The notes beneath the pieces are model-generated. The model did not search any database. It saw only the letters and a program-made list of their open reading frames with translations, and was not told where the DNA came from. Shown piece by piece: positions 1-45,618 of a DNA stretch of 64,000 bases. The position numbers and the translations under genes were made by a program. Location: positions 4,256,001 through 4,320,000 of the forward strand of contig CM000152.2 of assembly GCA_000004695.1 (NCBI GenBank), in the 5' to 3' direction. How positions within the stretch are numbered: the stretch's first letter is position 1; every line of letters starts with the position of its first letter. Source of the DNA: Dictyostelium discoideum (lineage: Eukaryota).

Positions 1-835
1 TATTATTTCTATTATTACTATTATTATTATTTTGTTGTTGTTGTTGTTGTGGTGGTTGTTGTGGTTGTTGTGGTGAAGAGTTGAAATTAAATGGGTCATT
101 TCCAAAAATATTATTATTGTTATTATTATTATTTTGGTGTGGAGAAGAGAAGAAATCATTTTGTTGAGGTGGTTTTTGAATAGTTTTTGAAGAAGCTGGT
201 GGAGGTGGAGATAAAAGGAAACCACCACCACTTGCACCTGTTAAAACTGGTAAATTCTTTTTATTATTATTGTTATTATTATTTCCAGCTGGTGCTTTTG
301 AAGTTGGTGCTTTAAATGGAATATGAATTGTTTGACCAGTCTTTAAACTATAATCTTTCTTTGGTTCATTTTCATAATTTCTTCTTTGAATTTCAATATC
401 TTTTTTATTTTTAATATAACTATAAATAATGAATAAATATTATTAAAAAAAGGGGTTAGTGTTTTGGTTTTCTAGAAAATTGCAATTGGATCATTTTAAT
501 TGATTTCATTTGATTGCCCTCCCATCCCCCCCACTGAGTGTGTGTGTTTATGATCATAATAAAAATTAAAATGAAATGAAAAATACTTTTGATGATCTTG
601 TAAAGTTGCATTGAATTCAAAAGCATCATCTCTATCGGTGAAACCCATTCCAACAAATGCATGACGTTCACCATCTTTAATTCTAATTACAAAATAACGA
701 CTACTATCGACAACTGGTTCAACAGAGTTTTGATCAAATGGGCATTGTGCAAAGATTTCACCATTATTTGGATCTTCAAATCTGATAACACAATTTTCAC
801 CTCTTGCTACAATAACTAATCTGCCAGTCCCTATA

Positions 836-874
<39 letters not shown>

Positions 875-960
875 ATTGTGAGAGTGAGTGATTTTGTGAT
901 TATATTTATTAAATTATTTGATTTAAAATTAATTTATTAATATTTGAGTTATAGAAAAAA

Positions 961-991
<31 letters not shown>

Positions 992-1140
992 AAAATTTTA
1001 TTTAAATCAAAAAACTTACAAATAAAGGAAGATGGATCCCAATCTTGAGCTTTATAACCACTTGCACTTGGTCTTGGTGGAATTCTATAAATAAAACATT
1101 CCTTTTTGACTAAAAGTGTTTGTTCATAATCTTCATCCAT
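1..1140 (-). CDS. NECAP-like (adaptin-ear-binding coat-associated protein, DUF1681) gene. It is 3' partial because it runs off the window start. Exons 1140..1020, 830..587, 419..<1
   Basis: Start at ATG 1140..1138; the track M at 1170 is a TTG. Exon 1 reads [40 protein letters not shown]. The GTAAGT donor and the acceptor at 831/830 complete a Trp, giving ..DW|[80 protein letters not shown]. This matches the NECAP core (YRIPPR..GYRA.DW..TGRLRI...RYFV.RI.DG.G..A.IGIGF.DR.DAFDF). Exon 3 encodes a low-complexity tail ([11 protein letters not shown]...[11 protein letters not shown]...NDPFNFNSS) like the NECAP C-terminus. Phases were checked by hand. Confidence 0.75.
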
Positions 1141-1404
1141 TTTAAATTTAGTAATATGTAAATATTCCAAATATGATATTTATTAAATAAATATAAATTA
1201 GGTAAACAACAACGTGTGTGTGTGGTAATATTAAAAAAATTAAAAAAATTAAAAAAAAAAAATTAAAAAATTAAAAAAAACCAAAAAAAAAAATTAAAAA
1301 AAATTAAAAAAAATTAAAAAAAAAAAAAGATTGTAGGTGAAATTTCTATTTAAAAGTCATAAATAAAAAAAAAAAACCAGCTTGGAAACTTGCAAAAAAT
1401 AATT

Positions 1405-1592: not shown

Positions 1593-4272
1593 ATGGGAGG
1601 TTCATGGAAAGATAAAGCTTCTTCATATATTATTCAAGATTCATTAATTAGTAGTTCACAAGTTAAATCTCTGTCCAATAGTGCCATAGAAAGTTGTTTA
1701 AAAAATTTAGGAGTATGTTATTAAAAAATAAAAAAAAAAAAAAATAACTTTTTTCTTACTTACTATTATTATTATTTTTTTTTTTATTTTATTTTTTTTA
1801 TTTTTTTTTTTATAGTATATAAGTTACTTTTCAAATTCTATAAATGAAATGTTAAGTAAATGTGATAGTAGATATATAATATCAATATTATATTTAGTTG
1901 ATGGTATATTTAGAGTATTAAATAAAAATTATGGTGAAGAGAATAAAAAGAAAGAACCATTATTTTCACAATTAAATGAATCATTCTCTTTAATGTTACA
2001 ACAAAATGAAAAGAAGATTCTAGGCTCAACACCAGAAAAAGATTGTATAAAATTAATTAAACTACTTCAAATTTGGTTAAAACGTAATGATTTAGATCAA
2101 CATTTATTAAAGAAATGGGTTTTTAGAATTTCAACAGATTTAAATATTGATATAGATAATTTAGATTCATACCAAACTAATAATAATAATAATATAAATG
2201 AAAACAATACAACTATATCATCATCATCAACATTTGTAAATAAAAAGAGAACATTAGATAGTAATTTTGATATTGATGATATACTTGAGCCATCATCATT
2301 TAAACATCAAAAAGTAGATAATAGTATTGGTATAAACAGTATTAATAATAGTAATAAACTATTACAACAACAACAACAATTAAATCAATTATTAAAAGAG
2401 AATTTAATATATGGATTACCAATGGAGATGTTATTTGAAATTTTATCGAATTTATCAGTTGTAGATTTAGTTAAAGTTTCAAAAGTTAGTAAATTCTTTT
2501 ATAGTGTTGTAAATAATTTACCAAGTTGTACGAGTATATCATTTGAAAATATGATTTTACCATCAATTGATATGCAAAGATCATTGATTCAATTTAATTT
2601 AGTTGTAAATGTAAATCTATCCTTTAGTAGATTCGTTACAAATGATGTTATAATCACATTAGCAAAACATTGTAAACATTTGGAATCTTTAAATGTTAAT
2701 GGTTGTTTACAATTGGATTTAACCTCGATGATTCAATTATTAAGACATTCAAGAAATTTAAAATCTTTAAAAATGTCTCAAGTCGTTTGTGATGGTGTTA
2801 TGGAATTATCAAATAAATTAAAAAACACATCACAAAATTCAAATACTACTACAACAACAACCACTACCACAACAGCATCAAATACAAAACATAAAAAACA
2901 ACCAATACCATTTGGTAGATTAGGAAGATATCCAAATAAAAGAGCGAGAGCAAGAGAAAGAAAAGCAAGATTAAAACAAAAACACCAACAACAACAACAA
3001 CAAGCTAAAACAAGAAGAATAAAAGATAAAACCAAAGAGGTATTATTAGCTAAAGTTTTCTTTGATTTATTATTTAATATTAAGAATGGTATTATTGATG
3101 ATTCTGATGATATTGATGATGATAATAATAATATAAATAATAATAATGAAAATAAAAAAAAAGTCACTAAAAAGAAAAAGAAAAAAGAAGTCAAGGGCAA
3201 TGCTAGTGGTGAATTAGATCAAGAATTTATAGATTTAGTAAGTGATTGTGAAATGCGTGAACATGATGAAAATGAACAGAAACATATAGATATAGAAAAT
3301 AATTGTAATAATAATAATAATAATAATAATAGTAATAATAATAGTGATGATAGTAATGAAGAAGAAGATTATGAAACTAGTGAAGAAGAAGAAGAAGAAG
3401 ATAATGAAGATGGACATGGCTTTAATTATGATGATTATAGTTATCACTATGATTATGATTATGATGACGATGATGATGAATATAGAATTGGGAGAGGAGG
3501 AGGAGGAGGAGGAGGAGATGGAGGAGAAAAAGCAGTAGGAGAAGGAGGAGGATACAGTAATTCTCCTGTTAATAATAAAAAAATTAGATTAAGAGAATTA
3601 GATATTAGTTGTTGTCATCCATTAATATTTTTAATACTTCAAAATTATAACAAACCATTATCAACAAGTTTAGTTAAATTAAATATTGATTGTATGTGTG
3701 CTTCAATTGAAATTGGTGGTTATGCCGCTGGTATTAATAATATTTTTAGCAATTTTCCATTCCTATCAAAATTAAATTCATTATTTAATCCTATAATACA
3801 TAATAATAATAGTAATACAACAACAACAACAACCACCACATCAGCTACAAATACTAATGAATCATCGTTAACGAATAATATTCAAATGGTACCAAATAAT
3901 TTTAAAATTATTGTAAAATCAGATTCAATTTGGAGACGATTAATTTTTAATGATTCAAATGGTTTCGAAAAATTGATATTACAAAAACAATCACAATATC
4001 TACAACAACCAAATTCAGAATATTCAATTAAAAAATTTAGGAAATATGTTAATAAACGTTATTTATTTGGTACAACTTCAATTTATATGGCTTGTAAATA
4101 TGGAAATTTTAAAGCAATTGATACTTTAATGTCATTAAATTCAAATAATAACAATAGTAATAATAATTATAGTAATAATAATAATAATAATAGTAATAAT
4201 AATAATAATAATCATAATAACAATAATAATAATAATAATAATAATAACAATAATAATAATGATAATAGTAAC

Positions 4273-4327
<55 letters not shown>

Positions 4328-4812
4328 GAGTTGTAAATATTAATATACCAGATTATTATGGTATAACACCATTATTAGTTTCAAATAATATTTTCATTGT
4401 AAAGAAATTAGTTGATGAATATGGTGTTGTTGCATCAAGTGAATTTGAAGAATTATTTATAAAGGTTTGTTTAATATTAAATAAATATCATTCATTCTTA
4501 ATTGAAGAATCACAAGCTAGACCTGATTCACCAACAAATGAAGAGTTTGATCAATTGTTAACCATGCTTTTAAAAACACCACCTCTAATTACAAATCAAG
4601 AAATTTATCGTCAAAATAATATCTTATTGGTAAAGTTTGTAAAAAATTTTAAATTCTTTCAAGACTATGTCAAAAGTTCTCATAATATTACAAAACGTGC
4701 ATTGCTATTATCTCAAACATTACGTGATGATTCAATTTATGAAAAAACTGATCTTTCAAATATGAGTAAAGAATATGAAAAAAGAATTTTAATGGTTTTA
4801 TATCATGGTTAA
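1593..4812 (+). CDS. CID/RPR-like N-terminal domain + F-box + LRR-like + ankyrin-repeat protein, poly-N/T rich. Exons 1593..1712, 1816..4812
   Basis: ORF 1849..4812, plus a predicted upstream exon (MGGSWKDKASSYIIQDSLISSSQVKSLSNSAIESCLKNLG) with a GTATGT donor at 1713 and a tttatAG acceptor at 1815, in frame with no stop. The N-terminus (ISILYLVDGIFRVLNKNYGEE..PLFSQLNESFSLMLQQNEKK..CIKLIKLLQIWLKRNDLDQHLL) follows the CID/RPR pattern of SCAF8/Pcf11 (LYVIDSIVRQS...F...L..W..R.V). The F-box is LIYGLPMEMLFEILSNLSVVDLVKVSKVSKFFYSVV. Ankyrin repeats are at TSIYMACKYGNFKAIDTLMS...DYYGITPLLVSNNIFIVKKLVDEYG. Confidence 0.7.
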
Positions 4813-5303: not shown

Positions 5304-6400
5304 ATGGAAAATATTACTCTTGATCAATACCTTCAATCAGCAGTTGATGTTGTTAAAGAGATTGGCCCAATGATTTTAAAAAACTATAACAGTCGTTCAA
5401 AACAAATTGAATACAAAGGTGCTATTGATTTAGTTACTGATACTGATAAAGGTAAATTTAAAAAAAAAATTAAAGAAAAAAAAAAAAAAAAATTTTAAAT
5501 GATTGGATAATCTAATTTATAAATATTCTTTTCTCTTTCTCTCTATTTGTTTGTTTGTTTTATTTATTTATTTATTTATTTATTTTAAATTTAAATTTAA
5601 TTTTTAGCTGTTGAAGAACATATTATTAAAACATTGACAACTAAATATCCACATACAAAGATTTTAGGAGAAGAATCAACTAAAGATGGAATTTACAATT
5701 GGGGTAATGAACCAACATGGGTAATTGATCCAATTGATGGTACAACCAATTTCGTTCATAGATTCCCATTATTTTGTGTTTCAATTGCATTATCAATAAA
5801 CAAAGAAATTGTTGTTGCTTGTTTATATGCACCAGTATTGGATGAATTATTCACAGCAACTAAAGGTGGTGGTGCCTTTTTAAATGGTGAATCAATTTCA
5901 GTTTCATCTGTTGAACATCTTTCACAATCAATCATTTCAACAAATGTTGGTTATGATAGATCCGATAAAGGTATTGAATTTATGTTAACGTAAGTATAAA
6001 AATAATAATAATAATTAAAAATTGGGAAAAAAAAAAAAAAGTGTGTGAATTTGAATTGTTAATATTAATAATGATTGAAAAAAAAAATAAAAAAAATAAA
6101 AAAAATAAAAGTAATTTCAAAAATATTTTAAAGGATAATGTTCAAGCATTAAGATTCTCAGGTACAGCAGCATGGGAAATGGCAAGTGTATCATGTGGTA
6201 GAGTTGATAGTTTCTATGAATGGGGTATTCATCCATGGGATATTGCTGCTGCCTCTTTATTAATTACAGAAGCTGGCGGTGTTGTTGTTGACCCATCAGG
6301 TGGTAAATGTGATATGGAATCTAGAAAAGTTTTATGTGGTAATCCAAATATTGTTAATAAATTATCAAAATTATTAATTGAAAAACCAACTTCTAATTAA
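5304..6400 (+). CDS. Inositol monophosphatase (IMPase family). Exons 5304..5451, 5608..5989, 6112..6400, about 273 aa
   Basis: Motifs WVIDPIDGTTNFVHRFPLFCVSIAL and WDIAAASLLITEAGGVVVDPSGG are canonical IMPase signatures. Introns bounded by GTAAAT/GTAAGT donors and AG acceptors restore frame (..VTDTDK|AVEEHIIKTL..; ..IEFMLT|NFKNILKDNVQALRFSGTAAW). Confidence 0.85.

Positions 6401-42211: not shown

Positions 42212-45618
<3,407 letters not shown>

Follow-up and report, generated by a model that had tools for sequence, protein, structure and literature searches.

A CTD-interacting domain precedes the F-box in an F-box/LRR/ankyrin protein of Dictyostelium discoideum and its dictyostelid orthologues

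CTD-interacting domains (CIDs) are known for bringing factors of RNA processing and termination to the C-terminal domain (CTD) of RNA polymerase II (Pol II). To our knowledge, the ubiquitin ligases directed at Pol II reach the polymerase by other modules (Rsp5/NEDD4, Elongin-cullin, the cullin-RING ligase 4 complex CRL4-CSA with UVSSA, ARMC5-CUL3, and Asr1), and we know of no E3 ligase that uses a CID. We investigated a 64,000-nucleotide stretch of Dictyostelium discoideum DNA (assembly GCA_000004695.1, contig CM000152.2, positions 4,256,001 to 4,320,000 of the forward strand; hereafter the window), in which a two-exon gene at 1593..4812 on the plus strand encodes a CID followed by an F-box, leucine-rich repeats (LRRs), and ankyrin repeats. 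We infer that the protein may be a substrate receptor of an SCF (Skp1-Cul1-Rbx1) ubiquitin ligase whose CID would tether it to Ser2-phosphorylated Pol II, with the LRR-ankyrin-C-terminal module engaging the substrate; to this reading of its sequence we give a probability of roughly one-half.

The described proteins that come closest each share a part of this architecture. SCAF8/SCAF4, Nrd1, and Seb1 share only the CID, at 17-20% identity; in these proteins the CID is combined with an RRM, whereas here it instead precedes an F-box, LRRs, and ankyrin repeats, and Pfam returned no RRM match in the D. discoideum protein or in any orthologue. With the CID alone in common and no RRM, the protein is therefore not a member of the SCAF8/Nrd1/Seb1-type termination and processing factors. 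In KDM2A and KDM2B (FBXL11 and FBXL10), too, the F-box-LRR unit is preceded by a module that targets chromatin or transcription, and the F-box-LRR of KDM2B is matched by the LRR profile described below (5jh5, E = 1.4e-6). Targeting in KDM2A and KDM2B is, however, the task of JmjC, CXXC, and PHD domains, which are readers of DNA and chromatin, and not of a CID. UVSSA, in the CSA-DDB1 CRL4 complex, brings a VHS domain rather than a CID, as a separate and unfused subunit, and to CRL4 rather than SCF. The closest functional analogue is the yeast RING E3 Asr1, which is recruited directly by phosphorylation of the Pol II CTD (PMC12270679). Asr1 is not homologous to the protein described here: it is a single-subunit RING/PHD ligase with a CTD-binding region of its own, has no CID fold, and is not a cullin-RING receptor.

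Orthologues of the protein were few. When residues 1-377 were searched exhaustively with HMMER against 1.84 billion representative proteins, only three proteins gave matches to the CID as well as to the F-box part, each of them dictyostelid or dictyostelid-like: P0001 (E = 3.9e-43, 757 aa, from JGI contigs), Tieghemostelium lacteum KYR01564.1 (P0002, E = 2.6e-33, 691 aa, annotated as “cyclin-like F-box containing protein”), and Cavenderia fasciculata DFA_03334 (P0003, E = 6.3e-22, 708 aa). These three scored far above the background of generic F-box/LRR matches, the generic matches being LRR proteins, and the order of CID, then F-box, then ankyrin repeats is common to all three, as is the architecture as a whole. 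A word-index homologue search, run once on the 377-aa sequence and once on the CID alignment, returned no match although the orthologues are in the collection, which we take as a limit of the index and not as absence; a scan of metagenome contigs with the CID alignment gave 600 pattern matches, none of which was confirmed. A literature search found no paper that pairs an F-box with a CID. The CID-F-box combination thus seems not to have been reported before and, within the reach of the sequence search, to be confined to dictyostelids; the word “unusual,” used of it in a first-pass annotation of this DNA, holds to the extent that it can be tested by three proteins in 1.84 billion and by that literature search.

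Residues 5-149 of the D. discoideum protein (1605..2142, plus strand, split by intron 1) are a genuine CID. When the N-terminal 159 aa were scanned alone, Pfam CID (PF04818) matched residues 20-140 with 26.7 bits (cut-off 23.9, E = 7.2e-6), and CID was the top Pfam family for all four N-termini; it was not listed in the Pfam scan of the full-length, poly-Asn-rich protein. A profile of the four N-terminal sequences retrieved only CID proteins from the PDB sequences (SCAF8, E = 3.3e-8; SCAF4, 1.4e-6; Nrd1, 5e-5; Pcf11, 3e-4; Seb1, 9e-4; RPRD1B, 0.035), with alignments that begin within the part encoded by exon 1. AlphaFold2 (AF2), given the four-sequence alignment, predicted eight helices (predicted local distance difference test, pLDDT, 89.8; predicted template modeling score, pTM, 0.86), of which helices 1-2, at residues 5-16 and 21-37, come from exon 1 (block pLDDT 79-94). 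The top 50 PDB matches of this model in Foldseek were all CIDs, the best being SCAF8 (TM 0.77/0.84, 2.3 Å, 143 columns), and the model has the eight-helix right-handed superhelical fold that distinguishes a CID from VHS/ENTH domains. We rejected a VHS/ENTH identity for the N-terminal domain, VHS/ENTH being no better a match than CID in sequence or in structure. A single-sequence AF2 model of residues 1-159 (pLDDT 65, below 50 in the exon-1 part) returned only noise in Foldseek and was replaced by the four-sequence model. The first-pass annotation had proposed a CID in the first ~140 aa, and the Pfam score above the cut-off, the CID-only profile matches, and the conservation of the groove residues (below) bear this out; its proposal that a CID, an F-box, and ankyrin repeats are combined in one protein is likewise supported by sequence, profile, and predicted-structure evidence.

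In Seb1/SCAF8 numbering, Tyr64, Asp67, and Arg71 are the conserved residues that dock the CTD β-turn (PMC4949328), and Arg112 of SCAF8 forms a salt bridge with phospho-Ser2, where Pcf11 has Met (PMC3215212). In our alignment Y66, D69, and R73 correspond to Y64, D67, and R71, and K122 to SCAF8 R112. All four orthologues carry Y66, D69, and K122 unchanged; at position 73 C. fasciculata has K and the other three have R. From these groove residues, including the conserved Lys122 at the SCAF8 Arg112 position, the CID is predicted to bind the CTD. P0001 has a Ser/Pro-rich insert of ~80 residues (residues ~70-150; contig L003, ~300-540) in the CID loop between helices 4 and 5. Within the insert is the stretch ...STPSSPTSPTKK..., in which SPTSP, the core of the Pol II CTD heptad (YSPTSPS), is found; the insert may be no more than low-complexity sequence, or it may mimic the CTD within the molecule and fill the CID groove.

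The first two CID helices depend on the gene model. The window has a GC content of 22.9%, with poly-Asn tracts and short, extremely AT-rich introns typical of Dictyostelium, and a mechanical list of open reading frames (ORFs) has two separate entries here, an ORF of 987 aa (1849..4812) and one of 43 aa (1593..1724). When 1593..1712 is joined to 1816..4812, 1038 codons are open and encode a 1038-aa protein with a single terminal stop. Exon 1 (1593..1712, plus strand, 120 nt, 40 codons, ATG at 1593, MGGSWKDK...CLKNLG) encodes CID helices 1-2; intron 1 (1713..1815, plus strand, 103 nt, GTATGT...TTTATAG, GT..AG, 6.8% GC) has in-frame stops inside; and exon 2 (1816..4812, plus strand, stop codon included) encodes residues 41-1038. 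The splice sites are GGA/GTATGT (donor) and TTTATAG/TAT (acceptor), and 1712/1816 is the sole junction with an open frame, dozens of stops appearing when the acceptor is moved by ±1 base. The unspliced ORF can start only at ATG 1849 (M52) because of an in-frame TAG at 1813-1815. The upstream exon and the 1712/1816 junction had already been put forward in the first-pass annotation, and both are upheld by the open frame and by similarity to the orthologues; the intron length given there, 104 nt, is corrected to 103 nt.

The N-termini of all three orthologues align to the 40-residue exon-1 peptide in the four-sequence alignment, and in a shuffle test against them the similarity was well above that of shuffled peptides (z = 6.9, 3.3, and 11.3; observed score reached by 0, 24, and 0 of 2000 shuffles). 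In the annotated C. fasciculata gene the first exon is exactly 120 nt (40 codons) and is followed by a phase-0 intron at the same alignment position; this intron ends just before F-I-D-Y-Y, matching G40/Y-I-S-Y-F in D. discoideum. The composition of exon 1 is coding-like, its GC content (29%) exceeding that of the intron (6.8%) and of the upstream 300 nt (7.3%). P0001 is one uninterrupted ORF on two contigs (2.4-2.5 kb, short flanks), the longer of which ends in AATAAA and a poly(A) run and is thus taken to be an assembled mRNA, a single transcript that encodes both the N-terminal domain and the F-box. Exon 1 is established by this comparative evidence, at a level short of direct RNA evidence in D. 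discoideum. The first intron of the T. lacteum orthologue (L001 6001-8283) lies elsewhere than in D. discoideum and C. fasciculata, after residue 24 and in phase 1, a sign that introns in the CID-coding part of the gene have been gained, lost, or have slid during dictyostelid evolution.

We also rejected a dependence of the Pfam CID match on exon 1: all of exon 2 alone scored 25.3 bits, two versions with a scrambled exon 1 scored 25.0-25.1, and the ORF from M52 scored 23.4. The true exon 1 adds ~1.5 bits and moves the start of the alignment from profile position ~36 to 13, so that it is conservation and structure, rather than the Pfam score, that argue for exon 1 being real. If exon 1 were unused, translation from M52 would yield a protein of 987 aa in which the first three helices of the CID are missing. 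The 987-aa ORF is complete by itself, exon 2 supplies most of the Pfam CID score (23.4-25.3 bits if exon 1 is left out vs. 26.7 if it is kept), and RNA from D. discoideum did not enter into the gene model, all of which would suit such a product; nevertheless, it is highly improbable given that the exon-1 peptide is kept in three orthologues, that C. fasciculata shares the first-exon length and the intron phase, that the orthologous P0001 mRNA contig encodes an equivalent N-terminus, that exon 1 has 29% GC against 7% in its flanks, and that helices 1-2 are confidently modeled and align to CID helices 1-2. Neither gene model (1038 or 987 aa) is present verbatim in the protein collection searched, which is uninformative, as only one of the seven other long ORFs of the window is present there.

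The F-box (2413..2526, plus strand, residues 240-277, LPMEMLFEILSNLSVVDLVKVSKVSKFF) matched PF00646 with 35.2 bits (cut-off 20.5, E = 9.6e-9) and PF12937 with 31.8 bits (cut-off 24.3, E = 1.2e-7). Between it and the CID is a flexible linker of ~90 residues. In this low-complexity linker the basic motif KKRTL (2242..2256, plus strand), whose K184 and L187 are invariant in the alignment, could be a candidate nuclear localization signal. LRRs of the Skp2 type follow the F-box immediately, as in the FBXL class: LRR block 1 (FBXL/Skp2-type; 2536..2781, residues 281-362) and LRR block 2 (3580..3699, residues 629-668, with the invariant motifs ISCCHxLI and NIDC.C), both on the plus strand, are separated by a low-complexity insert (2782..3579, plus strand, residues 363-628, alignment columns ~483-747) that is present in none of the three orthologues. 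Single-sequence Pfam LRR matches were weak (E = 0.29-0.45). An LRR profile of the orthologues with inserts removed, searched against the PDB, matched FBXL2 (8.8e-30), FBXL17 (1.2e-21), and SKP2 (1.6e-16), followed by COI1, TIR1, Rad7, FBXL5, KDM2B, and FBXL3. Thus, the F-box called canonical by the first-pass annotation is confirmed by two Pfam models, and the FBXL/Skp2-type LRR domain between it and the ankyrin repeats had been overlooked. FBXL2, FBXL17, and SKP2 are like the D. discoideum protein in that the F-box is directly followed by Skp2-type LRRs (8.8e-30 to 1.6e-16), but our searches gave no pointer to a CID or to ankyrin repeats in them, and the LRR domain is short here and split in D. 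discoideum by the 266-residue low-complexity insert. The insert is species-specific and consists of Thr, basic (RYPNKRARARERKARLKQKH), acidic, Asn, and Gly runs.

The same F-box sequence is listed as DDB_G0281237 in Figure S3 of Boland et al. 2022 (PMC9485057); the copy in that supplement differs slightly from the window, apparently from machine reading. By its F-box sequence we identify the locus as DDB_G0281237 or a very close relative. DDB_G0281237 is there given class “abt,” with “LRR” as the only other domain, where a denotes an F-box annotated in UniProt, b one predicted by BLASTp, and t membership of the training set (PMC9485057). The gene is therefore already catalogued as F-box/LRR, the CID is not noted there (PMC9485057 contains no mention of a CID), and our literature search found the gene ID DDB_G0281237 in the main text of no paper. 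The domain is easily hidden: a full-length scan of so low-complexity-rich a protein loses the CID, and a gene model that starts at M52 would truncate it.

How such a protein would work can be proposed from its domains. Its F-box would bind Skp1, which would make it a substrate receptor of an SCF ligase. The CID appears to keep both the Tyr/Asp/Arg groove that docks the CTD β-turn and a Lys at the phospho-Ser2 (SCAF8 Arg112) position, and so would tether the ligase to the Ser2-phosphorylated CTD of elongating or terminating Pol II. Known SCF receptors hold their substrates C-terminal to the F-box (Skp2, Fbw7, and β-TrCP structures); the LRR-ankyrin-C-terminal module would, by analogy with known SCF structures, lie on the E2-facing side of the F-box and present the substrate for ubiquitination, and this substrate may be Rpb1 itself or a factor traveling with the polymerase. 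If this reading is true, the CTD phospho-code would be read directly by a cullin-RING ligase, in a simple and genetically tractable case. The fusion of a CID to a putative SCF receptor is conserved across the three sampled dictyostelid genera and the P0001 relative, and Dictyostelium is haploid and easily knocked out, so that the hypothesis is directly testable. The more specific proposal, in which SCF(CID-FBXL) docks on Ser2-phosphorylated Rpb1 and polyubiquitinates the polymerase or a tightly associated elongation or termination factor, is doubtful; were it true, it would amount to a direct, phospho-code-gated removal of stalled or terminating Pol II.

Several points weigh against a CTD-tethered SCF receptor. 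The functional hypothesis is attractive, but we infer it entirely, from sequence and a model; the AF2 model of the CID was built on an alignment of only four sequences; and the support for the splice junction 1712/1816 comes from the open frame and from comparison between species. The three orthologue CIDs individually scored 17.6-21.6 bits, below the Pfam cut-off (23.9), which, together with the blank full-length scan, is probably why precomputed annotations of the orthologues give F-box and ankyrin only. Such divergence would also fit a CID retained as a structural or regulatory remnant (autoinhibition, dimerization, or stability) that does not bind the CTD, in a protein that acts as a conventional FBXL receptor through its LRRs and ankyrin repeats. 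Non-canonical CIDs do exist, that of Ctk3 (5ce7) not binding the CTD canonically, and P0001 tolerates an insert of ~80 residues in its CID loop. We nevertheless consider a remnant distinctly unlikely, as the groove residues are invariant across the deep dictyostelid split and the nearest relatives in sequence and structure are canonical CTD binders.

A further point against CTD tethering is that CIDs can bind peptides other than the CTD, as the Nrd1 CID does with the Nrd1-interacting motifs (NIMs) of Trf4 and Sen1 (2mow, 6o3w), and the Nrd1 structures with these NIM peptides are among the best structural matches of the model. The CID might thus read a CTD-like motif (NIM-type or phospho-Ser-Pro) in a protein other than Pol II and serve an ordinary SCF-FBXL as phosphodegron reader or docking site, F-box proteins being typical recognizers of phosphodegrons. 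We think this unlikely: four species retain the residues that dock the CTD β-turn together with a basic residue in the phospho-Ser2 position, and the CID is N-terminal to the F-box, which is not the usual place of substrate-binding domains in SCF receptors.

The SCF part of the proposed receptor meets a difficulty of its own. In the Boland et al. catalogue the codes v, s, u, and m denote recovery in Skp1 co-immunoprecipitations, and DDB_G0281237 has none of them, i.e., it was not recovered with Skp1 in four data sets (PMC9485057). This is what one would see if the protein acted outside SCF, for instance as an adaptor on the transcription machinery that engages Skp1 alone or does without it, and some F-box proteins do work in this way. 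However, these co-immunoprecipitations yielded only 7 of the 54 predicted F-box proteins, so that most are likewise missing, and the F-box of DDB_G0281237 is canonical and within the training set of 17 confident F-boxes (PMC9485057); the LRR domain is, moreover, homologous to those of bona fide SCF receptors. A role outside SCF is accordingly very unlikely.

The remainder of the putative SCF receptor consists of ankyrin repeats and a conserved C-terminal region, all on the plus strand. Ankyrin repeat 1 (4051..4143, residues 786-816) is split from ankyrin repeat 2 (4342..4428, residues 883-911) by a poly-Asn insert of 60 residues (4144..4323, residues 817-876) that is missing from all three orthologues. 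Pfam Ank matches in the D. discoideum protein were below threshold (Ank_2 with the poly-Asn run removed: 20.8 bits vs. a cut-off of 27.3), five Ank models scored above the cut-off at the aligned position in the orthologue P0001, and a four-species profile strongly matched ankyrin repeats over about two repeat units. Judged by these alignments, the family clearly has two ankyrin repeats, the D. discoideum copy being divergent and split; the C-terminal ankyrin repeats claimed at first reading therefore stand on the family profile and P0001, and are weak in the D. discoideum protein itself. The C-terminal region (4435..4809, residues 914-1038, ~125 residues) is conserved in all four orthologues and has no Pfam match in the D. 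discoideum protein or in the orthologues, and among the PDB matches listed for the C-terminal profile, the best stretches fall within profile positions ~12-99, which are the ankyrin part.

Elsewhere in the window, the one long ORF found verbatim in the protein collection (43855-45615, plus strand, 587 aa, present there in a sequencing-run assembly) clusters at ≥90% identity with KAN0009323.1, a protein of 989 aa from Dictyostelium citrinum. On this evidence the ORF appears to be a single exon within a larger gene, and the scarcity of verbatim matches suggests that D. discoideum reference proteins are largely absent from the collection. A long (AAATAAAT)n-type microsatellite at 1405-1500, just upstream of the proposed start codon, lies within the 450-bp intergenic region common to the gene and its divergent upstream neighbor (590-1149, minus strand), a NECAP/DUF1681 homologue (PF07933, E = 8.8e-49) interrupted by at least one intron that bears a ~35-base T run at 840-874. 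The C. fasciculata orthologue also has a DUF1681 gene upstream (L002 3133-4414), but the two share a strand there and are separated by a gene for ribosomal protein L37ae; with the DUF1681 gene upstream in both species and the strand and L37ae differing, the synteny is partial. Downstream, at 5304-6400 on the plus strand, is a gene of the inositol monophosphatase family (PF00459, E = 3.5e-49) with short AT-rich introns.

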